Source of the DNA: Planctomycetota bacterium
Lineage (GTDB): Bacteria > Planctomycetota > UBA8108 > UBA1146
Direction: 5' to 3'
NCBI GenBank assembly: GCA_036338595.1
Contig: JAYZBV010000068.1
Location: forward strand, 1-22,938
Length of the DNA: 22,938 nt
Part shown: positions 2,897 through 22,938 of the stretch, piece after piece
How positions within the stretch are numbered: position 1 is the stretch's first letter
Layout of the letters: the number at the start of each line of letters is the position of its first letter
Program-made: the position numbers and the translations under genes
Notes under the pieces: model-generated
The model's input: only the letters and a program-made list of their open reading frames with translations
Databases searched by the model: none
Told to the model about the DNA's origin: nothing

Positions 2897-5800
2897 TCAC
2901 CTCAGCCGGGTTGTTTCATCGAGACCAAAGAGGGCCGAACAGACCGCGGTCATCGCCGCCCACTCGATGGGATCGAGGGTTTCATCGCTGCCACTCTCTC
3001 CCACCTGGAGCCAGCGACTTGCGGCTTCCGGATCTGCACGAAACTGCTGCAACAGGTCATCGCGCAGCGACAGCAAGGTGGTCAGTTCCTCACTTGTGGT
3101 GGCTCTGCCGGTCAGTAACCGGAAGGCCTGAGCGATGGATGCATCGGGTTTCTCCGGCAATTCGTGAAGAACCCTACGAGCGAGCATTCGTGCCGCTTCG
3201 ACGAACTGAGGATCATTCATCAGGACCAGCGACTGCATCGGAGTACTGGTGCGATGCCTGCGTGTGACGCACACATCTCGCTTCGAGGCATCGAAGATCA
3301 TCATCGTGGGAGGGGGAGAAGTGCGCTTCCAGAAGGTATAGAGACTTCTGCGGTAGAGCCCCTCACCCTTCGATGCGGTGTAGGTGTGACCGCTCTTTTC
3401 TTGCCACAGCCCTGGCGGTTGATACGGCAACACACTCGGTCCCCCGATCTTGTTGACCAGCAAGCCGCTGGTCTGAAGCGCATGATCGCGGACCATCTCT
3501 GCGGACATCCGAACAGACGGTCCTCGTGCAAGCATCTGGTTGTCGGGATCGGTCTCGTACAGTTGAGGCGTGGTCCTGGATGATTGCATCCAGCTTCTTG
3601 AGGTGAGCATCTGCTTCAGCATCCGTTTCACATCCCAGCCGCTGTCGATGAAATCGAGCGCCAGGAAGTCGAGCAGATCGGGGTGGGATGGTCGCATCCC
3701 CTGTGTGCCCAGATTCTCGGAGGTGGCGACAATTCCGTGGCCAAAGGCGATCTGCCACAGGCGGTTCACTGCGACCCTTGCTGTCAGCGGGTTCCGTCTC
3801 GAGACGAGCCAGTCAGCGAGTGTCGATCGATCTCGCGGTGCACCCTCGGGCAACGGGGGCAGGAAGGCGGGCACATCGGGTTGCACCTCTTCTGCCGGGG
3901 CATCGTAGAGACCTCGCAGCAACAGGTGCGTTGACCGTCTGGGCGACATCTCCTGCATCACCATGATCTTTGGTTTCTTGTCCCTGAAGCCATTGAGAGC
4001 CTTGCGCGCAGTGGCCAATGCTGCCCGGGCAGTTCGAGATGGTTCGTCGACCGCCAGTATCCACCACCGATACAACTCCTCGTCATCGAAGGCCAGAGTT
4101 GCATCCGGATCCGTTCCAGCGAGATGCAGTTTGCGCACCTCGACAGCGGAGATGGAACGCCCTAACAGGTGCATCTCGTCGATCTCGCCCCCCTTGAAGC
4201 CACGATCTCGAAAGCGTTCTCCGATGGCGAAGTAGGGGCCTCCGCCGGTGATGGGGGATTCGAGGTGATCGCGCACGACCTCGACCGCGGCCGGTTCTCC
4301 ATCGATGTAGAGATCAATTCCACGGGCACGACTCGATCCGTCGTAGGAAAAGACGACATGAGTCCAGCGCCCCGGCTCGATACGATCGATGCTGGACACC
4401 GCGATCGCATCTCCGGGCCAGAAGTGAATCAGAGCCGCAGACAGTCGTCCATCTTCGATCAACAACTGGTATCCCTGGCTGGCGGCATCGGTCCAGGCGC
4501 GCGAGCGATGCAGGATCACCGCACGCTGCATCTGCCCGTCGGTACGAATCCATAACGAGATGCTGAAGGGATCGTTACGGCTGTAGGCACCGATCCCATC
4601 GAATCTCAGTGCATCGTCTCCGGTGAGTCGAATCGCCTTGCCCTGAATCCCGTCCGTCAGGGTCAAGGCTGCCGGTGCCTTGGCAGGATGCTCGGCGTCG
4701 ATGCTGTTTTCGCACAGGCCATCGACGATCTCGTCGAAGGAGTAACCGGCGACCACATCTGAGATGAAGGGAGCGGGAGTGGCTCCCTGCTGATCTTCTC
4801 GCCACAGCGCGAACGCTTGTCGCCGCGTCGCTTCGAGGGATTGCAACTGGCTCACTGCACTCTCGACATCTTCGGCCAGTGTTTCGATCTTCGAGAGCGC
4901 TCCATCATCGACCAGCGCCAGCGCCGGTGTCGGCACTGCAGATGTGAAGTGAGAGTAGAGTCCACTCTCATCGATGTTGGAGAAGAACGCGGAGAGCGCG
5001 TAAAACTCGCGTTGCTTCAGCGGATCGAACTTGTGGTCGTGACAGCGGGCACACTCGAAGGTGAGACCGAGAAATGCGGTGGAGAAGGTCTGGGTACGAT
5101 CCGCAACATACTCGATGCGGTACTCCTCCTCGACGCTGCCGCCTTCGTTGGTTTGACGGTGAAGCCGCTGGAACGCAGTGGCGAGTTTCTGATCGGCGCT
5201 GGCATCCTCGATCAGATCTCCGGCGACCTGCCAGCGGATGAACTGGTCATGAGGAAGATTGCTGTTGAACGAATCGATGACCCAGTCGCGCCACTGCCAC
5301 ATCTGTCGGTGTACATCGGACTGGTAGCCGTAGCTGTCGGCATAGCGAGCGATATCGAGCCAGTGGGTTGCCATCTGTTCACCGAAGGTGGGCGATGCCA
5401 GCAGCGAGTCGATCCAGTGAGGCCATGCTGCCTCGGAATCGTCGGTAAGCAGTGAATCCAGCGCTTCCAGTTCGGGAGCGAGGCCGGTCAGGATGAAGGA
5501 AGCGCGTCGTGCCAGCGTCGCTCGATCTGCTGCTTCGGCGGGCCCCCGCCCCTGCGCCTCTAGCCTCGCCAGCACGAATCGGTCGATCGCCTGCGCTCCC
5601 CACGCTGCATCGGTCACTTCCGGCAGTTCCACCGGCTCCGGCGAGACGAAGGACCAGTGACGATCGAAGTCTGCTCCCTGGGCGATCCATCGCTCCAGCA
5701 GTTCGATCTCGGCTGCGGAGACTTCCAGCTTCGATTCCGGGGGGGGCATCCGTTCCTCGGGGTCGTCGAGGTGCAAGCGCTCGATCATGCGGCTGGAGGC

Positions 5801-6076
5801 CGGATCTCCGGGCACGATGGCGGCTCCATCGGTTCTCGGTGCCAGCGCATCCTCGCGGCGATCGAGACGAAGTTTCGCCTTCCTGGCCGCCGCGTCGGGA
5901 CCGTGACAGCGATAGCATCGATCGGCAAGGATGGGGCGGATGGAACGATCGTAATCGATCTCGTCAGGGGGCGGTGGAGCCATGAATCCAGTCGACAGCA
6001 ACAGCAGCGTGAACATCGCCATCGACACGCCCCGGAAGGGGGGGAGGGGGCGATTCCTGGTCGACATCTGCTTCAT
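2897..6076 (-). CDS. Planctomycete cytochrome c (PSCyt1) + DUF1549 + LamG/ConA-like + DUF1553 domain protein
   Basis: CYRCH and CARCH heme-binding motifs; WLDIARYADS (DUF1549); central LamG-like region (FSISLWI, WTHVVFSYDG, FKGGEIDE); NPLTARVAVNRLWQ and PSHPDLLDFLA (DUF1553). The true start is probably 6076 (MKQM) or slightly downstream, not 6214. Confidence 0.9.
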   Translation of the reverse strand: MKQMSTRNRPLPPFRGVSMAMFTLLLLSTGFMAPPPPDEIDYDRSIRPILADRCYRCHGPDAAARKAKLRLDRREDALAPRTDGAAIVPGDPASSRMIERLHLDDPEERMPPPESKLEVSAAEIELLERWIAQGADFDRHWSFVSPEPVELPEVTDAAWGAQAIDRFVLARLEAQGRGPAEAADRATLARRASFILTGLAPELEALDSLLTDDSEAAWPHWIDSLLASPTFGEQMATHWLDIARYADSYGYQSDVHRQMWQWRDWVIDSFNSNLPHDQFIRWQVAGDLIEDASADQKLATAFQRLHRQTNEGGSVEEEYRIEYVADRTQTFSTAFLGLTFECARCHDHKFDPLKQREFYALSAFFSNIDESGLYSHFTSAVPTPALALVDDGALSKIETLAEDVESAVSQLQSLEATRRQAFALWREDQQGATPAPFISDVVAGYSFDEIVDGLCENSIDAEHPAKAPAALTLTDGIQGKAIRLTGDDALRFDGIGAYSRNDPFSISLWIRTDGQMQRAVILHRSRAWTDAASQGYQLLIEDGRLSAALIHFWPGDAIAVSSIDRIEPGRWTHVVFSYDGSSRARGIDLYIDGEPAAVEVVRDHLESPITGGGPYFAIGERFRDRGFKGGEIDEMHLLGRSISAVEVRKLHLAGTDPDATLAFDDEELYRWWILAVDEPSRTARAALATARKALNGFRDKKPKIMVMQEMSPRRSTHLLLRGLYDAPAEEVQPDVPAFLPPLPEGAPRDRSTLADWLVSRRNPLTARVAVNRLWQIAFGHGIVATSENLGTQGMRPSHPDLLDFLALDFIDSGWDVKRMLKQMLTSRSWMQSSRTTPQLYETDPDNQMLARGPSVRMSAEMVRDHALQTSGLLVNKIGGPSVLPYQPPGLWQEKSGHTYTASKGEGLYRRSLYTFWKRTSPPPTMMIFDASKRDVCVTRRHRTSTPMQSLVLMNDPQFVEAARMLARRVLHELPEKPDASIAQAFRLLTGRATTSEELTTLLSLRDDLLQQFRADPEAASRWLQVGESGSDETLDPIEWAAMTAVCSALFGLDETTRLR

Positions 6077-6606
6077 GGGCTGATCGTAACACGGGGCATC
6101 CTCGTTGGCAGTGAGACCCTCGGAGGTGAAACCTCTCTCACCCACGCCTCGAGCCGATGCGCAGGGAAGCGGATGGCGAGATGGAACGGAAGACGCGCTC
6201 GAAGGGATCTGCAATTCGAAGCGATCTGAAGGGAGTACTCCGCCAGTGGATCAGCCATTGCGGGCTCAACCGCTGCGATCCTGTGATCCTGAAGAAGAGA
6301 CGGCGATCTCTCACGATCTGCCAGCGATGGAATGGCGGCCATCCCATCGACACGCAGCGTGCAGATCGATGGCTCTCGACCTGTCGCAATATCGGATGGT
6401 GACGACACCATGAGTGACATTTTATTGTATCTAACACCCAGAAAATAAAGAGTTTATGGAAGGCCATGCCGATTGAGATGTGGGCAGTAGCAAGCGCTGG
6501 AACCGTCATCTAGACTCTAGAAGTCGACGGGTTTGATCGATTTTCTGACCGCAGCTGGTGCTGACTGGCAAGGTCTGATGGGTTTGACGAAATGCCCGCC
6601 AATCAT

Positions 6607-6720
6607 TTCGGGAAACTGAAGGGATCGTTTTCAACGCAGTTGACAACTCGAGGGTGAGCCGGAGGAAATCACTCGCTCCTCGAGATCGCAGGACCCACGG
6701 AGTGGTCCTGGTTTTTTTCT
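6607..6720 (+). promoter_or_regulatory. Structured 5' leader or small RNA upstream of the precursor gene, ending in a terminator-like hairpin plus U-tract
   Basis: Consecutive stems TTCGG-gaaa-CTGAA (6607-6620), TCAAC-gca-GTTGA (6631-6643), CTCGAGG...CCTCGAG (6647-6684) and CAGGAC-c-CAC-gga-GTG-GTCCTG (6689-6710), then T7 (6712-6718). Confidence 0.45.
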
Positions 6721-6747
6721 GACCAGATTTCCAAGAGAGTAGTCAAG

Positions 6748-6924
6748 ATGAGCAACTGGGAACCAGAAGAAGTATCCGACGCTGATATGGAAGGCATCGC
6801 TGGGGGAGCGGGCAAGACCTCCGCCGAGGACAAGAAGAAGGCGCAGAAAAAGGAAAACGACGGGACCGACACAGGCTTCCCGGGCGGTGGCAAAGAGGAG
6901 AAGAGACCTCCTTACAAAAAGTAA
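6748..6924 (+). CDS. Double-glycine-leader precursor peptide (bacteriocin/RiPP-like), 58 aa
   Basis: Manual translation: MSNWEPEEVSDADMEGIAGG|AGKTSAEDKKKAQKKENDGTDTGFPGGGKEEKRPPYKK. The leader end matches the ELSDxELExVAGG consensus. There is a purine-rich AAGAGAG upstream, and the gene lies directly before a C39-peptidase exporter operon. It is too short for the ORF track. Confidence 0.85.
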   Translation: MSNWEPEEVSDADMEGIAGGAGKTSAEDKKKAQKKENDGTDTGFPGGGKEEKRPPYKK

Positions 6925-6984
6925 TTCTAGGCTGAAGATGGAGGCACCTGCCACGGCCTTGTCGTGTGGGTGCCATCCGTTTCG

Positions 6985-7037
6985 AGAACCGGTCGCCTCC
7001 GCCGATGTGGCGGGTAGGCGGTCGGTTCTTTTTTCTT
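6985..7037 (+). terminator. Intrinsic terminator after the precursor gene
   Basis: AGAACCGGTCGCCT-CCGCC pairs with GGCGG-gt-AGGCGGTCGGTTCT (two G-U pairs, 2-nt bulge), followed by TTTTTCTT. Confidence 0.75.
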
Positions 7038-7102
7038 GATCGTTGGTGGATCCACATCCGGAGACTGGATGCGGATCAGTTCAAGACTGTAGAGGTGGGC
7101 AG

Positions 7103-7657
7103 TTGCGAAATTCTCTCATCATCCTGGGAGTCCTCGAGGATCAGGATATCGAGTGGTTCGTGCGCGTCGGGCAGACCGCTGTGATTCAGGAAGCCGACAT
7201 CCTCATCGAAGAGGGTATTCATATCGAGTCCCTCTGGTTCGTTCTCGAAGGGGCCCTGACGGTTACCACCATCACCGACACGACAAAGAAACTGGCGACC
7301 ATCTATCCTGGCGAGATTGTTGGCGAGGTTTCGTTCCTCGACTCAAGGCCTCCTGCGGTCACATTGATAGCTGCGGAACGAACCACGGTACTGCAAATCT
7401 CTCGTACCGAACTCAAGACGAAACTCCACAACGACACCGGATTTGCCAGTCGATTCTATCGAGCGCTCGGAGTCTGTCTGGCTCAACGGCTGATTCACCT
7501 GACCCACACGACGCTGACGGTCAGCACCCTGGGCAAGGTAGATTCAGACGCTGATGTGGACGACGACAGTTCGATCGTCGATCCGGATGTACTGGAGGCG
7601 ATGTCGCTGGCTAGCCGCCGCTTCGCATACCTGCTCGAAAGGGCCAGCAATCACTGA
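7103..7657 (+). CDS. Cyclic-nucleotide-binding domain protein associated with bacteriocin-type transport (TIGR03896-like, single domain)
   Basis: ILIEEG, LWFVLEG, PGEIVGEVSFLDSRPPAVT and GFASRFYRAL motifs; no CRP HTH domain. Probable TTG start at 7103 (MRNSLIILGVLEDQDIEW) after GAGGTG. Confidence 0.85.
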   Translation: MRNSLIILGVLEDQDIEWFVRVGQTAVIQEADILIEEGIHIESLWFVLEGALTVTTITDTTKKLATIYPGEIVGEVSFLDSRPPAVTLIAAERTTVLQISRTELKTKLHNDTGFASRFYRALGVCLAQRLIHLTHTTLTVSTLGKVDSDADVDDDSSIVDPDVLEAMSLASRRFAYLLERASNH

Positions 7658-7692
7658 TCGGTTTCTCAGTTCCATCCGTCGAGGAGGTTCCC

Positions 7693-9135
7693 TTGTCCAC
7701 CGAAAAGCCCACTCTGTTTCGCCAGAAGGCTCTCGAACACATCTCGACACCCGAACAACTGGATACGATGTTGCAGGTGCTTCCCAGACGGAACTGGATT
7801 CCGCTGCTGGTGGTCGGGCTCGGCTGTCTCGGTTTCGGTATCTGGTGCGTCTTTGGCCAGATTCCCGTCAATGTGCAGGCCAGCGGCATCATGGTCTATC
7901 CGGGACGCATCGTGCCGCTGCAGAGCCACTCGCAGGGGCAACTGCTGGTGCTCAATGTCAAGGTCGGTGACGAGGTATCCAGGGGACAGGTACTCGGGGA
8001 GGTCTATCAGCCGGAACTCTCGGAGCAGGAAGCGGTGGAGAAGGAACTGCTCGAAGAACTCAGAACCAAGATTTCCACCACGGAACCGCTGAGAAAATTC
8101 ACGCTTGAATCGGAAAAGAATTTCATCGAGGCCAAGCGGAGCTGGTATCAGCAGCGAATCGAGATCAACACCGAATTGGCCAATGCCCGTCATGCAGAAA
8201 GTGACCGGTACCTGTCTCGCCAATCGAGTCAGATGCTCGAATATCAATCCGATCTCGAGGTACTGGGGGGCTTCCTGGCGAAGAAACTCTCTGACTTCGA
8301 GGCGTTGACCGAACAGAAGATCTTTGCCGAGTACGATCAAGAGGTCACCGATACGCGCCAGGAATTGCTGAACAACAAGGTTGCCCTGTCCGAGTTGAAG
8401 TTGAAGCAGCAGGAGATCGAGTTTCAGCGACTCAAGTTCCTCGCTGAGCATCAGGTTCGCCTCGATGGCATCGAGGAACTGAAAAGAAACCTGGAAGAAC
8501 TCGGGGTCCAGAATGCGAGGCTGGATCAGGCAGAGTTGACCGCTGCAACGAAGACTCGCCTCGAACTGGCAGAGGCGCAGGGACGCCTTCAAAGACTGAC
8601 ACGGAGTCACTCTCATCAATCGACCATCGTCTCTCCCCACTCGGGAAAAGTGCTCGAACTGACCGTTTCGCCGGGCCAGGTGCTCACACAGGGGCAGCAA
8701 ATCGGGCTGATCGAGAGCACGGGCAGCCCTGACGGACTCGTTGCAGTGGCGTACTTTCCCGTCAAGGACGGCAAGAAGATCCAGTCTGGAATGAAGACTC
8801 GCATCACTCCGACAACCATCAAGCGTGAAAGGTATGGCAGCATCGTCGGCGATATTACCACTGTATCTTCGGTACCACGCTCGACCGATTCCATCGCTGC
8901 CATCGTCGGAAATCGAGAGCTGGCGATGAGTTTTGGTACCGGGGGATCGATGATCGAGGTTCGAAGCAGCCTGGAAGCGGCTGACGAGAATCCCAGTGGG
9001 TATCGATGGTCATCGGGCAAGGGTCCGGACATCTCGATCACTTCAGGGATGACGGTCACCGTCGATGCCACCATCGAGTACCGAAAACCGATCACGTTTC
9101 TGCTACCGTTCCTCCGTGACCTCGGTGGTAACTAG
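7693..9135 (+). CDS. NHLM/NHLP-type bacteriocin secretion membrane fusion protein (HlyD family, TIGR03794-like)
   Basis: N-terminal LFRQKALEHISTPEQLD motif, one transmembrane helix, long coiled coil, KRERYGSIVG and SGYRWSS motifs, KPITFLLP at the end. TTG start after GAGGAGG. Confidence 0.92.
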   Translation: MSTEKPTLFRQKALEHISTPEQLDTMLQVLPRRNWIPLLVVGLGCLGFGIWCVFGQIPVNVQASGIMVYPGRIVPLQSHSQGQLLVLNVKVGDEVSRGQVLGEVYQPELSEQEAVEKELLEELRTKISTTEPLRKFTLESEKNFIEAKRSWYQQRIEINTELANARHAESDRYLSRQSSQMLEYQSDLEVLGGFLAKKLSDFEALTEQKIFAEYDQEVTDTRQELLNNKVALSELKLKQQEIEFQRLKFLAEHQVRLDGIEELKRNLEELGVQNARLDQAELTAATKTRLELAEAQGRLQRLTRSHSHQSTIVSPHSGKVLELTVSPGQVLTQGQQIGLIESTGSPDGLVAVAYFPVKDGKKIQSGMKTRITPTTIKRERYGSIVGDITTVSSVPRSTDSIAAIVGNRELAMSFGTGGSMIEVRSSLEAADENPSGYRWSSGKGPDISITSGMTVTVDATIEYRKPITFLLPFLRDLGGN

Positions 9136-9141
9136 GTCAAC

Positions 9142-11325
9142 ATGGCAAGAGCGATCAACAAACGCGTCAGGACCCCAACTGTACTCCAACTGGAGGCGGT
9201 GGAGTGTGGTGCTGCATCGCTTGCGATGATCCTCGGCTATCACGGCAGAATAGAACCACTTGCGAAGTTGCGTCAGAATTGTGGTGTTTCGCGCGATGGC
9301 AGCAAGGCTGCCAATGTGCTTCGCGCTGCCCGTCGCTACGGTCTCGAGGCCAATGGGATCAAGGCCAGCGTCGATGCTCTCCGCGCCCAGAGGATGCCCT
9401 GTATCCTCTTCTGGGAGTTCAACCACTTCGTCGTACTCGAGGGCTTCAAGGATGACAGGGCCTACATCAATGATCCTGCGATGGGGCATCGAGTGATTCC
9501 CATTGCAGATTTCGAGCGCAGTTTCACGGGTGTTGCGCTGGCGATGAAACCGGGCGAGGAGTTCACCCGGGGAGGAAAGAAACCGAGCCTGGTGAGGGCC
9601 GTGAAGGAACGGTTGGCGGGCTCTGCACTGCCCATCGCCTTCTGCATCTTCATCGGCTTCTTGATGGTGATTCCGGGGATCCTCTTTCCGGTGCTGTTGC
9701 AGGTTTTTCTCGACGAGATCATCCTGGAAGGAAGAACGGACTGGGCACGGACCATCATGATGGCGATGTTTTTCGCCATCTTGATGGGGCTGGGTCTCAA
9801 GTACCTGCAATTGAATTCTCTGCGAAGACTTCGCTTGAATCTGACGATCAAACTTTCGAGCCAGTTCATGTGGCACCTCCTGCAGTTGCCCAATGAGTTC
9901 TATGTCCAGAGATTTGCAGGAGAGGTCGCCAACAGGAGCCAGTTGAATCAAGACCTGGCATCCGATCTCTCGGGACGGCTTGCCCAGACAGTCATCGATG
10001 TTGCGATGGCGGTACTCTATCTGACTGTGATGCTCTACTACGATGTCATGCTGACCTGTATCGGCATCTGCATCGCATTGCTCAACTTTTTCATCCTGAA
10101 GTGGATCTCTGCAAGCCGCATCGAGGCTTCGATGCGAGTGCTGCAGGAGTTCGGAAAAGCTGAAGGCACTGCGATGGCAGGCCTCAAGGGGATGGAGACG
10201 ATCAAGGCCAGTGGATTGGAAGCCGGATTCTATGAGAAGTGGTCGGGGTACTATTCGAAGGCGATCAATGCGCAGCAAAACCTGCAGGTGTCCAATGTGC
10301 TGCTGAGTACGATGCCTGCGATGCTCAGCGCTCTGGCGACGATACTCGTCATCATCGTGGGAGGCTTCAGGGTCATAGATGGGGTCATGACCATCGGAAT
10401 GCTCGTCGCGTTCCAGTCGCTGATGAGTTCCTTCCTGGGGCCGGTCGAGAATCTGCTCGATCTCGGCTCGATGACCCAGGAGATGCGAGGGGACCTCGAC
10501 CGGATCGACGATGTGCTGAAGTACCCCTTCGAGCGAAAGGAAGAGGAGACTCAGGACGCTGGCGATGGCGAAAAGACCTTCCTCACCGGAGAGATTCGCG
10601 TCGAGAACGTCTCCTTCGGCTACAACCCGCTCGAGCCGCCACTGCTGGAGGATCTGAGTCTTCACATCAAACCGGGAGATCGAGTGGCCCTCGTCGGAGG
10701 AAGTGGCTCGGGAAAATCGACGCTGGCGAAATTGATCTCTGGAGAACTGGTTCCCTGGAGCGGCGAGATCTATTTTGATGGAATATCCAGCACCGAACTG
10801 CCCAGGAATCTGTTCGTGAACTCGTTTTCCTTCATCAGCCAGGAGATCCTGCTCTTCAGTGGCACGGTTCGTGACAATCTGACGCTGTGGGATTCCACCG
10901 TCCCGGAGCAGGATCTGCAGCAAGCCTGCGAAGATGCTGCGATCCTCGACACCATCACTGAATTACCTGGCGGATTCGATGCGGATCTGATCGAGGGTGG
11001 AGACAACCTCAGCGGAGGACAGAAGCAGCGAATCGAGATCGCAAGAACCCTCGTGACAAATCCGACGATACTGATCCTCGATGAGGCGACCAGTGCACTC
11101 GATACGGAAACAGAGCGAATCGTGCTGGATCGGATGAGGATGAGAGGTTGCTCATCCATCTTCGTCTCGCACCGATTGAGCACCATCCGGGACTGCACAG
11201 AAATCATCGTACTCGAGCACGGTAAGGTTGTTGAGCGCGGCAACCATGATGAACTGTGGAACTCGGACGGTGCATACGCGGAACTGCTCAAGCTGGATGA
11301 CGAGTTCAAGGAGGAGAGCGCGTGA
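9142..11325 (+). CDS. NHLM-type ABC transporter with C39 peptidase, permease and ATPase domains (TIGR03796-like)
   Basis: TPTVLQLEAVECGAASL (catalytic Cys), WEFNHFVV (His) and INDP (Asp); CGVSRDGSKA; Walker A GGSGSGKST, signature LSGGQKQR, Walker B ILILDEATS. Confidence 0.95.
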   Translation: MARAINKRVRTPTVLQLEAVECGAASLAMILGYHGRIEPLAKLRQNCGVSRDGSKAANVLRAARRYGLEANGIKASVDALRAQRMPCILFWEFNHFVVLEGFKDDRAYINDPAMGHRVIPIADFERSFTGVALAMKPGEEFTRGGKKPSLVRAVKERLAGSALPIAFCIFIGFLMVIPGILFPVLLQVFLDEIILEGRTDWARTIMMAMFFAILMGLGLKYLQLNSLRRLRLNLTIKLSSQFMWHLLQLPNEFYVQRFAGEVANRSQLNQDLASDLSGRLAQTVIDVAMAVLYLTVMLYYDVMLTCIGICIALLNFFILKWISASRIEASMRVLQEFGKAEGTAMAGLKGMETIKASGLEAGFYEKWSGYYSKAINAQQNLQVSNVLLSTMPAMLSALATILVIIVGGFRVIDGVMTIGMLVAFQSLMSSFLGPVENLLDLGSMTQEMRGDLDRIDDVLKYPFERKEEETQDAGDGEKTFLTGEIRVENVSFGYNPLEPPLLEDLSLHIKPGDRVALVGGSGSGKSTLAKLISGELVPWSGEIYFDGISSTELPRNLFVNSFSFISQEILLFSGTVRDNLTLWDSTVPEQDLQQACEDAAILDTITELPGGFDADLIEGGDNLSGGQKQRIEIARTLVTNPTILILDEATSALDTETERIVLDRMRMRGCSSIFVSHRLSTIRDCTEIIVLEHGKVVERGNHDELWNSDGAYAELLKLDDEFKEESA

Positions 11326-14222
11326 TGAATCCAGAATCACAACTACTGGAGAAGAGCGGCACGATCAGGGTGGTTTCAGGCCACCTTGCGTTGCTGTTGA
11401 ATGATCCGGAGTTGATCTGGGTCGTCATCGACGGCCAGGGTGAGGTCGTATCCACCGATGTGAAAGATTCTCTGGCCACGGGTCGTCGCCGATTCATCTG
11501 TAATACGAGTGCGGGCGATGTTCTGTTTTCACTGCCTGCAGAGCACGCCACCGAAACACACGCTGCGATGCTGATTTCCCAGGAGTCCCTGCGGGTCATC
11601 GAGTTGCCGAGGGACCAGCTCGAATTTGCCGCATCCTCGATGGGACGCACTGCGATCGAGGCGATCGGGAACTGGGCGACCCGGATCTTCCCGCTGCTGG
11701 ATTCTGGATCTTCTCCCGCTTCCTGTGAGCGGGTCATCGCTGGAGACAGCCAGGTGCTCTCTCCTGGCTACAGGATCGCTCCGGCACCGGATCAGGAAGC
11801 ATGGATTCGAATTGGACAGGGTGAAGGCAATTTTGTCGGCAGCCATCGCGTGTCCTTCGAGGATGACCTGGTGCTCTCTCCCGCAGGAAGCTGGGTCGAG
11901 GCCACCGATGAGATGAAGTTCGAGGTGATGGACCCGTCCCTGGTCACCGAGGATGCCGCCTGGAATGCGCTGTATCGACTCCATGAAATCATCCAGCGCA
12001 AGAGATCAGAAGCCCGGTTACGTGAAGGAGAGATGAACCTGGAAAGGGTGCGGCAAAGGACTTCCATCGAGGAGAAGAAATCTGAACGCGCCCTGGCTCA
12101 GATGGCATCGGTCTTGAATCCGCAATCGACCCCTGCAGTCCATGGTGAAGATCTCTACTCCGTGATGAAACTGGTGGGGTCGGTGAAAGGGATCGAGATC
12201 TTGCCGATGGCAGACTCGACCGACATCGAGACGCTGAGCGACCCGGCAGAGGCGATCACCCGCGCTTCTCGAATCCAGTACCGCAGGGTCATGTTCAGGG
12301 GGAAGTGGTGGAAGAGCGATGTCGGCCCGCTGGTTGGCTACCTCACCGAGGACGGCAGACCCGTGGCGATCCTGCAGGACGCCAGGGGGCGCTACATGAT
12401 CCGTGACCCCAGAGATGACTCTTCCACGCCGGTGAGTGAGGAGACCGCTTCGCTGTTGCATCAGGATGCCATCGTCCTGATCCGATCTCTTGAAGAGGAT
12501 GAGAAGAGTCCCTTCGGCCTGATTGCGTTTTGCCTGAAGAACAAGTTTCCAGACATGGCCACATTCTTCCTGGCAGCGATGTTCCTCACGGTCCTGGGTA
12601 TGCTCATCCCTCAGGCGATGGCGATCGTTCTCGACAATGCGATCCCCAATTCCAATCCAAGACTGCTGATAGAACTCGGTGGAGCGCTGATCGCTGTTTC
12701 GCTGGGAATGACGATGCTGAGAGTCTTCCAGGCATTTGTCAGCATTCGACTCTCGGTGAGCACCGATTTCGATGCGCAATCGGCGATCTGGGATCGCCTG
12801 CTGCGGCTGAAGGTTTCCTTCTTCTCGCAGTACTCGACGGGGGACCTGTTGCAGCGAGTATCCGCAGCGCACGCCATCAGCCAGGAGTTCAGTGGTTCGA
12901 CGCTGCTGACCTTGATGACATCATTCATGGCACTGTTGAATGTTGCATTGCTGTTTTACTACAGTTCAAAACTGGCTCTCATGGCGATCGCCATCGCCAT
13001 CCTCGTTGCCATCGTCACGATGGTCGGAGGCGCACTGATCCGAAGGTATGCCAAGAAATTGATGGAGCAAGAGGGCGAATTGTTCGGTTTCGAGGTGCAA
13101 CTGATCAGTGCGGTCAGCAAGTTACGCGTTTCCGGTGCGGAAAGAAGAGCGTTTGCACTCTGGATGGAGCGAGTCGCTCGTCAGTTGAACCTGTCCAACA
13201 AGGTGCAAAGAGTTTCCGATGGGATGACCCTCTTCAATCAGGGCATTCCGATGCTGAGCACCTTGCTTCTCTTCATGCTTGCGATCCCGCTCGTCACGGA
13301 TCAGGGCCCGGCCGGGACGACCCTCTCGATCGGTATCTTCCTGGCCTTCAATACAGCTCTTGGCATCTTTCTCGGGGGAGCGCTGACATTGAGTTCGACC
13401 ATCGTCGGCTTCCTGGATACGACCGTTCTGGCAGGTCGAATGCAGCCTCTGCTGGAAGCCGAAATGGAAACGGTTTCCGCCAGTGTGGATCCCGGAAAAC
13501 TGAAGGGAGACATCGAGCTCTCGAGAATCCATTTCCGCTACTCCCCCGATGGCCCGAAAGTACTCGAGGATGTATCGATTCATGCAAAACCCGGCGAACT
13601 CATCGCACTGACAGGCACATCCGGTTGCGGAAAATCGACCTTGTTGAGATTGATGCTTGGATTCGAGACTCCTGAGAGCGGTGAAGTTCGCTTCGACGGG
13701 CAAGAGATCGATTCGATCGATGCGACGGCAGTTCGGCGTCAATTGGGAGTGGTCCTTCAATCGGGTCATCTTGCTGCTGGTTCCATCTTCGAAAATATCA
13801 CCGTTGGCGCCATTCATACCATGGAAGAAGCGTGGGAAGCTGCGCAGGAGGCGGGGATCGCAGACGATATCCGGGCGATGCCGATGGAGATGCACACTGT
13901 CGTCAGTGAAGGGGGCAGTAACCTGTCCGGCGGGCAAAGACAGAGACTCCTCATCAGCCGAGCCTTGATTCGAAGGCCCAAGATTCTGTTCCTCGACGAA
14001 GCAACCAGTGCGCTTGATAATCGTGCCCAGCAGATCGTCAACGACAGCCTCAAGAGAAGGCGCGTCACTCGCATCGTGATCGCGCACCGACTCAGTTCGA
14101 TTCGTGCTGCAGATTGCATCTATGTTCTCGATCGCGGCCGTGTTGTCGAGCAGGGGGATTACAGAGAGCTGGTCGCTGCCGGAGGAACATTTGCAGGTCT
14201 GGTCGCACGGCAGACCACATAG
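11322..14222 (+). CDS. Second NHLM-type ABC transporter, ATP-binding/permease with a long N-terminal region and degenerate C39-like domain (TIGR03797-like)
   Basis: Start overlaps the upstream stop (GTGATGA). ASRIQYRRV..WWKSDVGPL motif, transmembrane domain, Walker A GTSGCGKST, LSGGQRQR, LFLDEATSALD. Confidence 0.93.
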   Translation: MMNPESQLLEKSGTIRVVSGHLALLLNDPELIWVVIDGQGEVVSTDVKDSLATGRRRFICNTSAGDVLFSLPAEHATETHAAMLISQESLRVIELPRDQLEFAASSMGRTAIEAIGNWATRIFPLLDSGSSPASCERVIAGDSQVLSPGYRIAPAPDQEAWIRIGQGEGNFVGSHRVSFEDDLVLSPAGSWVEATDEMKFEVMDPSLVTEDAAWNALYRLHEIIQRKRSEARLREGEMNLERVRQRTSIEEKKSERALAQMASVLNPQSTPAVHGEDLYSVMKLVGSVKGIEILPMADSTDIETLSDPAEAITRASRIQYRRVMFRGKWWKSDVGPLVGYLTEDGRPVAILQDARGRYMIRDPRDDSSTPVSEETASLLHQDAIVLIRSLEEDEKSPFGLIAFCLKNKFPDMATFFLAAMFLTVLGMLIPQAMAIVLDNAIPNSNPRLLIELGGALIAVSLGMTMLRVFQAFVSIRLSVSTDFDAQSAIWDRLLRLKVSFFSQYSTGDLLQRVSAAHAISQEFSGSTLLTLMTSFMALLNVALLFYYSSKLALMAIAIAILVAIVTMVGGALIRRYAKKLMEQEGELFGFEVQLISAVSKLRVSGAERRAFALWMERVARQLNLSNKVQRVSDGMTLFNQGIPMLSTLLLFMLAIPLVTDQGPAGTTLSIGIFLAFNTALGIFLGGALTLSSTIVGFLDTTVLAGRMQPLLEAEMETVSASVDPGKLKGDIELSRIHFRYSPDGPKVLEDVSIHAKPGELIALTGTSGCGKSTLLRLMLGFETPESGEVRFDGQEIDSIDATAVRRQLGVVLQSGHLAAGSIFENITVGAIHTMEEAWEAAQEAGIADDIRAMPMEMHTVVSEGGSNLSGGQRQRLLISRALIRRPKILFLDEATSALDNRAQQIVNDSLKRRRVTRIVIAHRLSSIRAADCIYVLDRGRVVEQGDYRELVAAGGTFAGLVARQTT

Positions 14223-14231
14223 AGGCATCCG

Positions 14232-15098
14232 ATGAAGAGTTCAGAGCTTCAGTTCATCGATGGAGCGACCGGTTCTGAGCTGGAACGGCGAGGGGTCGAC
14301 CTTTCGCTTCCGCTCTGGTCGACGCGAGCTCTGATCGATGCCCCCGAGATTCTTGCTGATGTGCATCGCGATTATCTCACAGCAGGCTCCCAGGCCATCA
14401 CCACGGCTACCTTTCGAACCCATCGCAGATCTCTGGAGAAGGCGAAGATGGGGCATCGAGCGGCGGAATTGACGAGACGGGCGCTGGAGATCGCCCGTGA
14501 TGCTCGCGACGAGGTTTGTCCCGATGCGCTGGTACTCGGTTCGGTGGCACCGCTGGAGGATTGTTATCGCCCCGACCTGGTTCCAGATCCCGACAGTTGT
14601 CATCGCGAGCATGGTGAACTGATCGGAAACCTGATGAGTTCCGGTGCCGACCTGATCCTCATCGAGACGATGAATCATCTCGGCGAGGCGCGGGCGGCGA
14701 TGCAAGCGGCGCAGGAGATCGCCCCGGGGAGGTGGTGGATCAGTTTCTGCCTCGATGAGGATCACCCCGGAGTGCTGCTCAGCGGTGAAAGTCTAGCTTC
14801 GCTGGAGGAGCCACTTTCCGAAGCCAGTGCGGTTGGAGTGAACTGTGTTGCCGCCGGAGCGATGGAGAGCCAGGTTCGCTGGCTGCGAGATCTGCTGCCG
14901 ATCACGCCACTGCTCGCCTATGGCAACATCGGGTGCGCCGATGAGCACGGGAACTGGTTCTCCACAGACGCTGTCTCTCCTGGAGATTACCTCACGCATG
15001 CTCGTCGCTGGATCAAAGCGGGAGCGAATATCATCGGTGGCTGCTGCGGCACGACACCGGAACACATTCGGCTGCTGACAGGGGAACTTCATCAGTGA
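14232..15098 (+). CDS. Homocysteine S-methyltransferase family protein (MmuM/BHMT-like Zn-binding domain)
   Basis: DGATGSELERRG, LWS, HRDYLTAG, GSVAP, ETM, GVNC and IIGGCCGTTPEHI motifs; the three Zn-ligand Cys residues are present. Confidence 0.9.
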   Translation: MKSSELQFIDGATGSELERRGVDLSLPLWSTRALIDAPEILADVHRDYLTAGSQAITTATFRTHRRSLEKAKMGHRAAELTRRALEIARDARDEVCPDALVLGSVAPLEDCYRPDLVPDPDSCHREHGELIGNLMSSGADLILIETMNHLGEARAAMQAAQEIAPGRWWISFCLDEDHPGVLLSGESLASLEEPLSEASAVGVNCVAAGAMESQVRWLRDLLPITPLLAYGNIGCADEHGNWFSTDAVSPGDYLTHARRWIKAGANIIGGCCGTTPEHIRLLTGELHQ

Positions 15099-15229
15099 GT
15101 GAGAGTACCAGATCCATCGGAATGGGGTGTGGCGGCCCTGAAGCACCCTTACCGTCTCACCACTGACGCAGTGCAGATGATCATCGACGATCAATGGCTC
15201 ATGGATGCCAACTTCAGAAGGGCCGACAC

Positions 15230-16990
15230 ATGTCTGATATCGATGTAGCCGCAAAGCCGGTCCCCGATGCAGAATCGTCCAGAACATCCAGAATCGTCCT
15301 CCGGGAAGCCACCGAGGAAGATCGCGAGGAGATTTACCGCTCACGCCATGATGTGTATGCCGTCGAACTGGGTCAGCACCCACAGAACCCGGATGGTTTG
15401 CTGAAGAATCATCTGGATGAGTTCAATCGCTACTTCGTGGCGCTCATCGATGGGCAGATGGCTGGCTTCATCAGCGTCACTCCACCGGAGGGGGGAGAAT
15501 TCTCCCTCGATGGATACCTGGATCGGGAGCAGTGGCCCTTCGAGGATCGTGATCGGTTGTTCGAAGTTCGGCTGTTGACGGTGAACTCAAGACGGCGAGG
15601 TTCGCTACTGGCGACAGCGCTGATGTATGCCTCGTTTCGGGCAGTGGAAGCGAGCGGAGGAACCCGGTTGGTCGTCATCGGCCGCACCGAGGTGGCCTCC
15701 ATCTATCGCAGTAGCGGATATCAGGACCATGGCGTCGAACTGGTCAGGGGAGACGTGACCTTTCGGCTGATGAGTGCCACCGTCGATCAAGTCAGGCAGC
15801 AGGTCGAGAATCGATCGCAACTACTGTCGCGGATCGAGCAGGCGGTCGACTGGCAACTGCCGGTACCGCTGAGAAAGCCTGCGGCTTGCTTTCATGGCGG
15901 CGGCTTTTTCAACGATGTGGGGGATGGTTTCCAGACTCTTTCGCGACGGCAGGAGATCATCAATGCGGATGTACTCGATGCCTGGTTCCCTGCCGCTCCC
16001 GGGGTGATTTCCACTCTCTCCGAGCACCTCGACTGGCTGGTTCGAACATCGCCTCCGACCGGTTGCGAGGGACTGGTCGCGGCGATCGCTGCTGCGCGGG
16101 GTGTGCCAGAGACGTGTATCTTGCCGGGGGCGGGGTCATCCGATCTGATCTTTCTCGCCTTCAACCAGTGGCTCGAGTCATCGAGCCGGGTGTTGTTGCT
16201 CGATCCAACCTATGGCGAGTACTTCCATGTCTGTGAACAGGTGCTGCGCTGTCAGGTGGATCGCTTCTCGCTGCGACGAGAAGAGGGCTTCGAGGTCGAT
16301 GGCGAAAAGTTGCAGGAACAACTCGCGGATGGGAATTACGACCTGGTAGTGGTGGTCAATCCCAACAGTCCCACCGGCCGTCATCTTCCGCTGAGAGAGT
16401 TAAAGTCGATCATCGAGACAACAGCACAATCCACTCGCTTCTGGATCGATGAGACCTACATCGAGTACGTCGGCAGCGAGCATTCGCTGGAACGGTTTGG
16501 CTGCCAGCGAAGAAACGTGGTGGTTTGCAAGTCGATGTCGAAGGGGTACGCGCTGTCGGGTGTGCGATCGGCATATCTCTGTGCGTCACCCGAACTGCTC
16601 GAACCGTTGCGAGCCTTGACTCCGCCGTGGGCGGTCAGTTTGCCGGGTCAAGTGGCAGCGGTGAAGGCACTCGAGGATCCACAGTATTACCAGACGCAAT
16701 ATCAGGCGACCGCGATGGCACGCGAATCGATGGCCCGAGACCTGCAAGAACTGGGGCTCGAGGTGATTCCATCGGTGGCTAACTTCTTGCTGACCTTTCT
16801 TCCCCCCGATGGGCCGACCGCGGCACAGGTCATCGAACGGTGCCGCCAGTCAGGAGTTCATCTGAGGGATGCCAGCAACATGGGAAGTGCCCTGGGAACC
16901 CATTCGCTCAGGACTGCGGTCAAGTCGCCGCAGCAGAACCAGCAGATCGTGAAAGCCATCGCCGGGGCGCTGTCGCCTGCACAGGCCTGA
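15230..16990 (+). CDS. Fusion of an N-terminal GNAT-fold acyltransferase and a class I/II PLP aminotransferase/decarboxylase (HisC/CobD-like)
   Basis: N-terminal REEIYRSRHDVYAVELG, AGFISVTPP and EVRLLTV..RRGS. C-terminal GAGSSDLI, PTYGEY, VNPNSPTG, IDETY and KSMSKGYALSGVR (PLP lysine). Probable start is the ATG at 15230; the track gives 15194. Confidence 0.85.
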   Translation: MSDIDVAAKPVPDAESSRTSRIVLREATEEDREEIYRSRHDVYAVELGQHPQNPDGLLKNHLDEFNRYFVALIDGQMAGFISVTPPEGGEFSLDGYLDREQWPFEDRDRLFEVRLLTVNSRRRGSLLATALMYASFRAVEASGGTRLVVIGRTEVASIYRSSGYQDHGVELVRGDVTFRLMSATVDQVRQQVENRSQLLSRIEQAVDWQLPVPLRKPAACFHGGGFFNDVGDGFQTLSRRQEIINADVLDAWFPAAPGVISTLSEHLDWLVRTSPPTGCEGLVAAIAAARGVPETCILPGAGSSDLIFLAFNQWLESSSRVLLLDPTYGEYFHVCEQVLRCQVDRFSLRREEGFEVDGEKLQEQLADGNYDLVVVVNPNSPTGRHLPLRELKSIIETTAQSTRFWIDETYIEYVGSEHSLERFGCQRRNVVVCKSMSKGYALSGVRSAYLCASPELLEPLRALTPPWAVSLPGQVAAVKALEDPQYYQTQYQATAMARESMARDLQELGLEVIPSVANFLLTFLPPDGPTAAQVIERCRQSGVHLRDASNMGSALGTHSLRTAVKSPQQNQQIVKAIAGALSPAQA

Positions 16991-17012
16991 TCGAGTTCAC
17001 GCCTGTTCGAGT

Positions 17013-17558
17013 TCAGCCGCGCTGGATCCGGTAGAGGATGTGGGGGCGAAGCGGATGCCCCTCTTCCAGTGCCGGGTGATCGAAATCGCCATCCTCATCA
17101 CGGGTCATGCCGATCTTTTCCATGACTCGAATCGACGCGGCATTCTCTGGCACCGTGAAGGCGACGATTTCATCGAGCCCGAGATGCCCGAATCCAAACT
17201 TCAGCGAGGCGGTCGCTCCCTCGGTGGCATACCCCTGTCCCCAGAAGGAAGGCATCAGATGCCAGCCGATCTCGACGCAGGGGCTCGCAGGAAGGTTGTG
17301 ACGAGGGATTCCCAGGCCGAGGAATCCGATGAACTCGACTTCATCTGGCAGTTCCAGTACCCATGGCCCGAACCCTTCAACGGCGATCTGCTGCTGAATA
17401 CGCTCGAACAGGGCATCCGCAGCGGATCGTGGGCCAGGACCCGGCATGAATCGGTTGTAGAGAGGATCAGCGAGCATTTCAGCCAGAGGATCGCGATCCG
17501 CGGCACGCCAGCTCCTCAGCAGCAGCCGCTCGGTTTCGATGCAGTCCGGTAAGGTCAC
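17013..17558 (-). CDS. GNAT family N-acetyltransferase (RimJ/RimL-like)
   Basis: IETERLLLR, VEIGW, FWGQGYATE, NAASIRVMEKIGM and FDHP..HPLRPHILY motifs. Confidence 0.92.
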   Translation of the reverse strand: MTLPDCIETERLLLRSWRAADRDPLAEMLADPLYNRFMPGPGPRSAADALFERIQQQIAVEGFGPWVLELPDEVEFIGFLGLGIPRHNLPASPCVEIGWHLMPSFWGQGYATEGATASLKFGFGHLGLDEIVAFTVPENAASIRVMEKIGMTRDEDGDFDHPALEEGHPLRPHILYRIQRG

Positions 17559-17671
17559 CGCACACCCTCCTGGGCGCTAGATTATCGTTTTCGATCAGGG
17601 ATTGCGACCTGCTCCATCTAAGGGCACGATCTCGGTTCACCATGGCCATCGTATGGCCCGAAAGGATACCG

Positions 17672-18331
17672 ATGCAGATCGAACTGGAAGGCAATCCAGA
17701 TTTCGGTGAGGCGCGCGTGCAACTGGAATCGGGAGAGGGTATTCGTGCCGCCTCCGGCGCGATGAACTGGATGAAGGGACCGATCAGTCTCAAGGCGAGG
17801 CTGCTCGGAGGGTTGGGAACTTCCCTCGCTCGTAAGGTACTCGGCGGCACTTCTCTCTTCATCACGGAATTCAGTGCAGACGGGGACAGCCGGCTGGCAC
17901 TCAGCCATGCGATGGCGGGAACCCTGGTTCGCACTCCCGTGACCAGTGAAGGGTTGCTGATTGCGGGGGGGGCTTTCACCGCCTGCACTCGAGGCGTTCG
18001 TCTCAAGACTCGATTCGGTGGCTTCAAGGCGTTCTTCAGCGGCAAGGGGGCGTTCTTCATCGAAGCAGCAGGCGAAGGTGAAGTGCTGTTCGGTGCCTAC
18101 GGTGCGGTGGTCGAGAAGGAACTCGATGGAGACCTCGTTGTCGACAACGGCCATGTGCTGGCGTGGGAGCACACTCTCGACTGGAAACTGGGGACTGCCG
18201 GAGGACTCAAGACCACTCTCTTCTCCGGCGAGGGGTTGGTGATGCGTTTCTCGGGGCGCGGCAAGATCTGGTTGCAGACGCGTCATCTGTCCGGGACGGC
18301 GGGGTGGATCACCCCGTTCCTGAGAGGGTAA
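17672..18331 (+). CDS. AIM24 / TIGR00266 family protein (copy 1)
   Basis: SGAM, GGTSLFITEF, FFSGKG, GAYGA, VVDNGHVLAW, GEGLVMRFSGRGKIWLQTR. Start is the ATG at 17672 after AAAGGA. Confidence 0.9.
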   Translation: MQIELEGNPDFGEARVQLESGEGIRAASGAMNWMKGPISLKARLLGGLGTSLARKVLGGTSLFITEFSADGDSRLALSHAMAGTLVRTPVTSEGLLIAGGAFTACTRGVRLKTRFGGFKAFFSGKGAFFIEAAGEGEVLFGAYGAVVEKELDGDLVVDNGHVLAWEHTLDWKLGTAGGLKTTLFSGEGLVMRFSGRGKIWLQTRHLSGTAGWITPFLRG

Positions 18332-18335
18332 GGCG

Positions 18336-19022
18336 ATGGAGTTTGAAATTCTCGAGCAAGGAGCCTTCCAGTCGGCGTTGGCGCACTTCGAGGCGGGCGA
18401 GCGCGTCGTCAGCGAATCGGGGGCGATGGTGCGCGCTTCCGGCAATGTGGATATCGATGTCACGACCCGGGCCAAGAAGGGCGGAGGACTTCTCTCCGGA
18501 GTGAAGCGGATGCTCGGTGGTGATTCCTTCTTCCTCTCCACCTATACCACAACAGATGGGGCTCCAGGCGAGGTGGGCATCGCGCCGATCTTGCCGGGAG
18601 AGGTGATGGCTCTCGAAGTGGATGGCGCGACGCAGTGGAAGACCAGCGGCGGTTCCTTTCTCGCCGCAGGAGGAGACATCGACCTGGATACGGAGTTTCA
18701 GGGACTCGGTGGATTCCTCGGCGGCGAGAGCCTCTTCTTTCTCAAGGCGACTGGTTCTGGATCGTTGCTGGTCGGAGCCTTCGGAGCACTCCGTGAACTG
18801 GAAGTCGATGGAGAGTTGACGATAGACACCGGCCACCTGGTCGCCTACGAGTCGACCCTCGACTACTCGGTTTCCAAGGCAGGGGGTTCGTGGATGCAGT
18901 CTTTTCTCGCGGGTGAAGGATTTGTCATGAAGTTCAGTGGCCGTGGTCGTGTCATCGTTCAGACCCACGACGCGAGTGGATTCGGCAGACGGCTCGGTCC
19001 CATGCTGCCGGCGAGGGGGTAA
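18336..19022 (+). CDS. AIM24 / TIGR00266 family protein (copy 2)
   Basis: SESGAM, GGDSFF, GGESLFFL, GAFGA, IDTGHLVAY, GEGFVMKFSGRGRVIVQT. Confidence 0.9.
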   Translation: MEFEILEQGAFQSALAHFEAGERVVSESGAMVRASGNVDIDVTTRAKKGGGLLSGVKRMLGGDSFFLSTYTTTDGAPGEVGIAPILPGEVMALEVDGATQWKTSGGSFLAAGGDIDLDTEFQGLGGFLGGESLFFLKATGSGSLLVGAFGALRELEVDGELTIDTGHLVAYESTLDYSVSKAGGSWMQSFLAGEGFVMKFSGRGRVIVQTHDASGFGRRLGPMLPARG

Positions 19023-19025
19023 TAG

Positions 19026-19700: not shown

Positions 19701-19740
19701 TTGCCTACCCTGCTTCAAGCTTGCTGATCGGAGAATGAAG

Positions 19741-20907: not shown

Positions 20908-20985
20908 TGCTGCGAAGGAGACTCTTCTCATGACTGCTGGATCTGATGTCACTCTCCGGTCATCATCAGAGCAAGAGGTGACCCG

Positions 20986-21946: not shown

Positions 21947-21972
21947 TTTCGATCTGGCAGGGCGTCTTTTCT
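21932..21972 (+). terminator. Probable intrinsic terminator after the Rieske gene
   Basis: CCTGCC-t-GAT-ttcg-ATC-t-GGCAGG hairpin with outer GACG/CGTC pairing, followed by TTTTCT. Confidence 0.55.
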
Positions 21973-22046
21973 CATCCCTTCTTGCCTCTCTCCCAGGATG
22001 CGGGAAACTGCCCCCCAACAAGTCGTCGATGGGCAAGGGGGGTCCT

Positions 22047-22931: not shown

Positions 22932-22938
22932 TGCGCAC

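Follow-up and report, generated by a model that had tools for sequence, protein, structure and literature searches.

What does a bacterium export through a bacteriocin-type transport cassette when no recognisable enzyme is at hand to mature the cargo? This question is raised by a stretch of 22,938 nucleotides from a member of the Planctomycetota (contig JAYZBV010000068.1 of assembly GCA_036338595.1), here called the window, which is the entire contig C68 of a 2.9-Mb metagenome-assembled genome (MAG; completeness 88.3%, contamination 7.2%). A preliminary description of this DNA had placed a peptide precursor, a cyclic nucleoside monophosphate (cNMP)-binding protein, an HlyD adaptor, a C39 peptidase-ATP-binding cassette (ABC) transporter and a second ABC protein on one strand between positions 6748 and 14222, and all five genes were indeed found there on the + strand. 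We think that this cassette probably exports unmodified, disordered polycations by type I secretion after removal of their leader by the C39 peptidase.

The precursor is an open reading frame (ORF) of 58 amino acids (6748..6924, +). According to the translation and the alignment, its leader of 20 amino acids (6748..6807, +) ends in Gly-Gly and carries Val-12, Met-7, Ile-4 and Ala-3. It is thus hydrophobic at -4, -7 and -12, the positions that the LahT protease recognises as described by Bobeica et al. 2019 (PMC6363468). The core of 38 amino acids (6808..6924, +) is rich in Lys, Glu, Gly and Asp, free of Cys, ends in Lys and is hypervariable. Since 16 related genomes share the conserved leader and RNA contigs from three studies cover the gene, the precursor is more than a chance ORF. 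No Pfam match was found for it, and none of the NCBIfam bacteriocin families scored over cut-off (best E 0.04). A search of the ESM Atlas gave matches below 0.9 only. Searches of two protein collections returned 30 and 21 matches, nearly all of the same type, and the four named homologues are all labelled Planctomycetota or Planctomycetes. Across the family, leaders are 17–26 and cores 21–68 amino acids long. In the MAG itself, six precursors are spread over four loci, with one C39 domain in all. In those family loci with sufficient assembled upstream DNA, a precursor sits just upstream of the cNMP gene, and a profile built from 15 precursors matched 16 of 27 family genomes, namely 16 of the 18 with a cassette and none of the nine without.

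The cores were compared as a set of 77 distinct sequences, chosen by leader pattern from the loci and the protein matches (one run-on protein was excluded), with 1491 long ORFs as background. Lys makes up 21.3% of the core residues, followed by Gly (14.8%), Pro (10.7%) and Asp (9.5%); Arg is rare (1.3%) and Cys occurs four times in 3154 residues, while the background has 2.6% Lys and 6.9% Arg. The preference for Lys over Arg, expressed as Lys/(Lys+Arg), is 0.94 in the cores versus 0.29 in basic background windows, and 72 of the 77 cores have a net positive charge. In 62 cores a Lys lies among the first four residues, and 53 have Lys as the last one. When the 54 cores from loci are grouped into 28 sequence clusters, 21 clusters have the terminal Lys, versus less than 5.3% of background proteins. 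Strongly hydrophobic residues account for 12% of the 54 locus cores, and most cores lack a hydrophobic 11-mer. Taken together, core sequence appears to be free, whereas composition appears to be kept.

How free the sequence can be is visible in close relatives. At L211, identity with the window is 93–97% across PSD1, upstream region, leader, cNMP gene and HlyD, whereas nucleotide identity drops to 54% in the core and to 59% in the hairpins that follow it; in L210, the core is 88% identical. The assemblies of several genus relatives (L029, L031, L032, L058, L059 and L212) break off at or near the junction of precursor and cNMP gene, which is what a stretch that varies by strain or is strongly structured would lead one to expect. 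A distal precursor class in relatives (L100:3767-3940 (-), L103:763-963, L104:5851-6051 and L078), not found in this MAG, has a core that starts like a Flp/Fap pilin and continues with a Lys-rich part and a His-rich tail. Thirteen of its residues match the Flp/Fap model across the cut site (PF04964 positions 7-19, E 9e-5, below cut-off), and the double-glycine cut coincides with the prepilin cut site. The sequence of this class suggests capture of foreign sequence.

The precursor is present in RNA data from the ocean. Eleven RNA runs contain 5–12% of the words of 6300-9300, and four runs from four studies, all labelled as marine, were mapped on 3000-22938. In three of the four, the sole substantial piece was 6531-6852, 6531-6902 or 6540-6931, that is, the precursor with approximately 217 nucleotides upstream; the rest of the 20 kb yielded just a 33-nucleotide repeat match. 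The fourth run (X9) gave scattered pieces of 150–190 nucleotides over several genes, none of them on the precursor. The contig starts, at 6531 in two studies and at 6540 in the third, are a weak hint of a transcript start; together with conserved blocks and a hairpin at 6689-6710 (one found versus 1.2 expected by chance) they outline a likely 5´ untranslated leader of about 217 nucleotides (6531..6747, +). Non-coding blocks are kept upstream of the precursor in seven aligned upstream regions of genus relatives (6418-6747), among them a box rich in AT (near 6420-6460), a hexamer reading TAGACT/TAAACT (near 6511) and a number of blocks within the transcribed leader. The promoter scan returned nothing on the + strand, and Rfam gave nothing near gathering score around the precursor and none in the 5´ leader.

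Past the precursor lie two strong hairpins (6936..7030, +), the second of which has a U-rich tail and is likely an intrinsic terminator. Their folding energy is -61.5 kcal/mol (z -4.94), and none of 200 shuffles was equally stable. A simple terminator scan did not call them; an inverted repeat with a T-run is located at the matching place in five of six genus relatives, the sixth being cut by a contig end. RNA cover and hairpins would fit a short precursor transcript that exceeds the transporter message.

The export genes themselves are of a known type. The HlyD-type periplasmic adaptor (7693..9135, +), the C39 peptidase-ABC transporter ABC1 (9142..11325, +) and the second ABC subunit ABC2 (11322..14222, +) nearly touch or overlap, as had been noted before, with a gap of 6 nucleotides between HlyD and ABC1 and an overlap of 4 nucleotides between ABC1 and ABC2. 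The preliminary description had proposed four models for checking them and the cNMP protein. The trio scored over cut-off with TIGR03794 (291.5 bits, cut-off 156.2), TIGR03796 (1032.3, cut-off 853.3) and TIGR03797 (845.2, cut-off 709.4). TIGR03896 did not: the cNMP-fold protein (7100..7657, +; PF00027 E 3.5e-14) reached 114.1 bits with a cut-off of 161.05 and aligned to model positions 138-316 of 317 only. For its start we chose 7100, which aligns with the ATG of relatives (the ORF finder gives 7043). The protein is a half-length, one-domain form of TIGR03896 and not the tandem two-domain type. Canonical phosphate-binding motifs of cNMP-binding domains carry Pro-Arg-Ser; here the phosphate-binding cassette reads SRPP, and in the 15 aligned cNMP proteins the position of the canonical Arg is occupied by Pro in 14 and by Leu in the remaining one.

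The peptidase of ABC1 has an intact triad, C22/H95/D111, aligned with C27/H101/D117 of LahT, and its best match in the PDB is the LahT protease (6MPZ, E 2.9e-47). It is the sole C39 domain found in the MAG (one PF03412 match genome-wide). Both ABC1 and ABC2 retain the Walker A, signature, Walker B and His motifs in their ATPase domains. ABC2 has no PF03412 match and is thus a second ABC protein without active peptidase. An AlphaFold2 model of its N-terminus (residues 2-403, pLDDT 84.7) shows two beta-barrels, one long helix and an alpha/beta domain in which the catalytic Cys is missing. The barrels are predicted to be two degenerate cNMP-like folds: the top Foldseek matches were the tandem cNMP-binding domains of PKA/PKG (E ~1e-7, low TM-scores), and hhalign of the N-terminus against the small cNMP protein gave just 40% probability. 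The alpha/beta domain is probably C39-like, judged from its position and secondary structure. Five outer-membrane proteins of the OEP family, candidates for a TolC-type channel, are encoded on other contigs of the MAG.

The preliminary description had stated that the region has no canonical maturase, and this holds for the window, the MAG and most of the family. In the window, none of 18 scanned ORFs matched YcaO, LanM, radical SAM or ATP-grasp, as claimed. DUF4135/LanM was found in none of 28 family genomes, while the same model was positive in three of three Nostoc controls; a search of the MAG for LanC-like proteins was negative as well, but no control responded, and DUF4135 was relied on instead. 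YcaO was not found in the MAG and occurs in one of the 28 genomes (G009, which has no precursor match). PqqD/RiPP recognition elements (RRE; PF05402) were not found in the MAG and are present in two of the 28, both without cassette. DUF692 was not found in the MAG, and neither a Nif11 nor an NHLP leader scored over cut-off there. NHLP/Nif11 precursors with LanM or YcaO elsewhere, which would have turned the locus into an ordinary split one as the preliminary description had pointed out, were thus not found in the MAG.

Twelve of the 14 radical SAM proteins of the MAG were scanned. Eleven best match housekeeping or uncharacterised families outside the peptides that are ribosomally synthesised and modified post-translationally (RiPPs), one is of the QhpD type, and none of the twelve has a RiPP maturase as best match; the remaining two resemble a scanned QueE at the N-terminus. 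The QhpD-type protein (L094, G000:C58:10395-11906), a radical SAM protein of quinohemoprotein amine dehydrogenase maturation (TIGR03906 over cut-off), is the sole peptide-modifying one found in the MAG. RimK-family ligases are present in 25 of 28 genomes irrespective of the cassette and do not adjoin it. With no conserved core column and RimK untied to the cassette, the cores do not look like graspetides (graspetide-specific models were not run), and the lack of LanM and the near-absence of Cys do not fit a class II lanthipeptide.

Could the genes downstream of the cassette take the part of the maturase? HMT, GNAT-PLP, the three AIM24 genes, cNMP-HDO, NifU and Rieske were considered as parts of the system and rejected: they are syntenic with the cassette in genus g1 only, which for AIM24, NifU and Rieske is the sole ground for exclusion. 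In 5 of the 18 relatives with a cassette no GNAT-PLP was found; 4 of the 9 without cassette have it, and 6 of these 9 have cNMP-HDO. Empty sites with retained flanks were found in G012, G015 and G014, and HMT, GNAT-PLP and the pyridoxal phosphate (PLP) enzyme gene of g7 persist at such sites. A further one is found in the MAG itself, where contig C51 carries a second copy of the region (~74% identity) in which PSD1 directly adjoins HMT without a cassette; this contig is probably from a contaminating sister. Since they neither track the cassette nor leave with it, the downstream enzymes do not appear to be the maturases. The unit that is gained and lost is the precursor, the cNMP protein and the trio. 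Of the three fates for the cargo considered in the preliminary description, the unmodified one is thus best supported and modification by the downstream enzymes is not supported, while enzymes encoded elsewhere may act if they are of classes beyond the screen.

In genus g5 the picture is different. A protein of 1271 amino acids, a fusion of a carbamoyltransferase, DUF7059 and a HemK-like methyltransferase, is encoded there (L027:14707-18522 (-), L033:14193-18011 and L097:3593-7411). Searches in g1 (0 of 8), in this MAG and in g7 (0 of 8) did not find it. The fusion belongs to a widespread family of about 1260 amino acids with 287 matches in cyanobacteria, marine planctomycetes and Gammaproteobacteria. 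A role as general maturase is rejected outside g5: none of 36 loci elsewhere carries an NHLM transporter or a double-glycine precursor within 10 kb or less on each side. Outside the family its frequent neighbours are isochorismatase-family genes (12 of 33 loci) and sensor genes.

From these results the following course can be proposed. A short precursor transcript, seen as RNA cover, would be made and would likely end at the hairpins. The C39 domain of ABC1 would bind Val-12, Met-7 and Ile-4 and, by analogy with LahT, cut after Gly-Gly. Export of the core would fall to the ABC1/ABC2 pair together with HlyD and a TolC-type channel from another locus, and this one pump would also serve the remaining five precursors in the genome. 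For the cores we predict disordered polycations in which selection keeps composition (Lys, Gly, Pro, Asp and the terminal Lys) rather than sequence; once exported, they would likely act outside the cell via their charge. If they are exported unmodified, a role at the surface or in the matrix, for instance binding of anionic polymers or particles as for EbfG, is a tentative proposal with somewhat less than an even chance of being right. We favour it over other functions because composition and not sequence is kept, because the cores offer few hydrophobic faces, and because neither an immunity gene nor a receptor was seen.

Several points weigh against unmodified export with a charge-based role. 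Cleavage, export and function are all deduced from sequence. A stand-alone enzyme such as a GNAT acyltransferase, a methyltransferase or a kinase, or an RRE that has diverged beyond the reach of PF05402, could have escaped the maturase screen; the genomes of the relatives are 79–95% complete, and a MAG that is 88% complete and 7% contaminated limits what can be claimed as absent. The preference for Lys over Arg and the Lys at both core ends would also fit enzymatic modification of Lys. In g5, the 1271-amino-acid fusion is full-length in exactly three of six genomes, those with the cassette, and adjoins the cassette in all three; it is lost from both g5 empty sites checked and was found in none of the three g5 genomes without cassette. 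The wholesale replacement of cores among near-identical relatives could mean diversifying selection, as in antagonism or kin signalling, instead of a bulk role. Many of the genomes matched by the precursor profile had also contributed seeds to it, so that the absence from all nine cassette-less genomes is its informative part, and two of these nine (G019 and G026) have contig ends at the expected cassette site. Finally, the RNA runs were selected because they contain part of 6300-9300, and their contigs give presence only, not level, strand or true ends.

A modified cargo is the first alternative to be weighed. The cores might be RiPP substrates modified on Lys (or on Asn/Gln) by a non-canonical enzyme, either an acyl- or methyltransferase acting in trans or the g5 fusion, which the lineage of the window would have lost or would encode elsewhere. 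Besides the Lys statistics and the fusion beside all three g5 cassettes, this would agree with GNATs that acylate the terminal Lys of NHLP/Nif11 cores, as described for the selidamides, whose cores have a terminal Lys (PMC8784127). In two of three relatives an O-methyltransferase-like gene (L100:2851-3672 (-) and L104:6148-6969) directly follows the distal precursor pair; it is missing there in the third, and its best match, phthiotriol dimycocerosate methyltransferase, is below cut-off. We consider such a modification unlikely: cores in g1 and g7 have the same make-up without the fusion, the fusion keeps other company outside the family, the GNAT-PLP of the window does not track the cassette, the distal methyltransferase gives weak matches only in this MAG, and leaders of 17–26 amino acids leave a further recognition site little space. 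An ordinary split NHLM locus with a remote LanM or YcaO and NHLP/Nif11 precursors is very improbable and largely refuted by the near-complete lack of these enzymes across the family, of the leaders in the MAG and of Cys in the cores, even though the MAG is incomplete and group V clusters use a remote LanM in Prochlorococcus MIT9313 (PMC3140520).

The other alternatives concern the purpose of the peptides, and their likelihoods overlap with that of the favoured explanation, since bacteriocin and signal share its steps of unmodified export. Unmodified class II-like bacteriocins (microcins), aimed at close relatives or other microbes with core swapping as an arms race, would use just this route of double-glycine leader and peptidase-containing ABC transporter; the motif and the protease are present and cleavage is predicted. 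Positive charge, several paralogues per genome and core replacement in otherwise 93–97% identical surroundings would suit them too. However, membrane-active bacteriocins differ from such hydrophobic-poor cores, no conserved ORF of at least 30 amino acids (a candidate immunity gene) was found across 15 intergenic gaps, and the bacteriocin models stayed below cut-off; we regard this explanation as rather unlikely. Strain-specific signals (pheromones or kin tags), with export gated by cyclic nucleotides via the cNMP-fold protein and the ABC2 barrels, are less likely still. Core replacement at strain level and cNMP-fold domains in two subunits speak for them, the MAG encodes cyclase-like proteins, and an adenylate-cyclase-like gene is located upstream of the cassette in two other planctomycetes of 22 examined (L041:5242-6852 (-) and L107:1943-3997 (-)), one of which also has an HD/PDE-like gene downstream (L107:14022-14681). 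On the other hand, no receptor or two-component gene adjoins the cassette in the family loci mapped, the canonical phosphate-binding Arg is replaced, and the length and low complexity of the cores do not suit a pheromone well. A broader alternative, which we also hold to be improbable, is a maturase-free system that generates diversity of secreted peptides: the minimal leader would be a portable export tag, cores would be swapped between strains or captured from other genes, strain-specific Lys polycations would act as identity tags or decoys, and g5 would have added carbamoyl/methyl tailoring, founding a new RiPP class.

How new is the system? The preliminary description had called it the best candidate for an undescribed system in the window, which is overstated for the machine. 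The NHLM export cluster of Haft, Basu and Mitchell 2010 (PMC2887384) shares the TIGR03794/03796/03797 trio over cut-off, the single operon and the double-glycine cargo, and according to its authors the cassette follows the leader more faithfully than any tailoring enzyme. The short leaders described here are not nitrile-hydratase-like or Nif11, the cores are not rich in Cys, Ser or Thr, and LanM is lacking in this family with YcaO in a single genome. Closer still in architecture are the cyanobacterial group V clusters of Wang, Fewer and Sivonen 2011 (PMC3140520), which as described share HlyD, a short C39-ABC, a second ABC without peptidase and a CAP_ED protein, again with no local LanM. They differ from our locus, which has a planctomycete host, a one-domain instead of a two-domain cNMP protein, no remote LanM found and Lys/Gly/Pro/Asp cores. 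Moreover, among 401 sampled genomes of the phylum, 30 have the TIGR03796 transporter. What seems to be undescribed is the cargo family and not the export machine: we found no account of these peptides in the open literature without supplements, and similar cores could be listed among the precursors tabulated for PMC3140520 and PMC8784127.

Other systems resemble single parts. The closest solved C39 protein, LahT with its substrates LahA from Lachnospiraceae C6A11 (Bobeica et al. 2019, PMC6363468, PDB 6MPZ), conserves the triad and the -4/-7/-12 positions and likewise is one core-tolerant protease for many precursors, whereas the LahA peptides have Nif11 leaders and a Gram-positive host. The prochlorosins ProcA/ProcM (PMC10783134) are likewise marine, with dispersed paralogous precursors of conserved leader and highly variable core, but our family has no lanthionine synthetase, next to no Cys and no Nif11 leader. 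With the selidamides (Hubrich et al. 2022, PMC8784127) the cores share Lys at the termini, and a GNAT domain is located near the window cassette; a lanthionine synthetase is again lacking, and this GNAT forms a fusion with a PLP enzyme. The model for the function that we prefer is EbfG1-4/PteB of Synechococcus elongatus (Parnasa et al. 2016, PMC4997328), in which small double-glycine proteins are cut by a C39 transporter, secreted and given a non-antibiotic, surface-related role. One C39 transporter is described in that account, and the likeness to our cores is one of route, not of sequence comparison.

Genomes commonly encode bacteriocin-type exporters without a maturase, most of them with neither cargo nor purpose explained. 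Here the cargo is defined family-wide, is present in ocean RNA data and probably needs no tailoring, and ordinary peptide synthesis could supply it for tests of binding, antagonism and signalling, with hosts known here as MAGs only. If the charge-based role is true, non-antibiotic double-glycine export would extend beyond EbfG; if the cores are modified on Lys, they would be a pointer to new RiPP chemistry.

The cassette may have moved among its hosts. In a quick ABC1 tree of genomes from this phylum, from which no donor is claimed, the transporters of g1, g5 and g7 group in a single clade (15 rows, support 100), g5 being nested within g1, and the cassette occupies a different chromosomal site in each genus; both hint at movement within the family. 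A recent horizontal origin from outside was considered and is not supported by composition (GC 56% in the cassette versus 58–60% in the flanks, with GC at third codon positions alike). Among 22 outside or divergent planctomycete loci that were mapped, precursors are Nif11-like, short or not recognised, and a TolC-like gene adjoins three. One such cassette (L110:12709-14684) has five Nif11-like precursors with cores almost wholly of Val, Ile, Met and Pro.

Further observations concern the surroundings of the cassette. The planctomycete assignment of the window is based on PSCyt1, PSCyt2, PSD1 and DUF1501 genes present in it and on the labels of the four named precursor homologues. Signs of a mixed assembly were seen in this MAG (G000) on contigs C51 and C39 and on C11, C29 and C53: six window genes are duplicated (70–89% protein identity), and the QueE and RimK locus exists in three copies. 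GNAT-PLP (15194-16990) joins a GNAT-like domain, for which nothing in the PDB scored better than E 0.44, to a HisC/CobD-like PLP enzyme; the fusion is found in g1 and g5, the PLP part alone in g4 and g7. Three tandem AIM24/TIGR00266 paralogues (17642-19700), ~33–36% identical to each other, are kept in genus relatives. The cNMP-HDO protein (19741-20907), present in 22 of 27 family genomes, combines a cNMP-binding domain that has the canonical Arg with a heme-oxygenase-like diiron oxidase (PF14518) and is possibly a cAMP-regulated oxidase.

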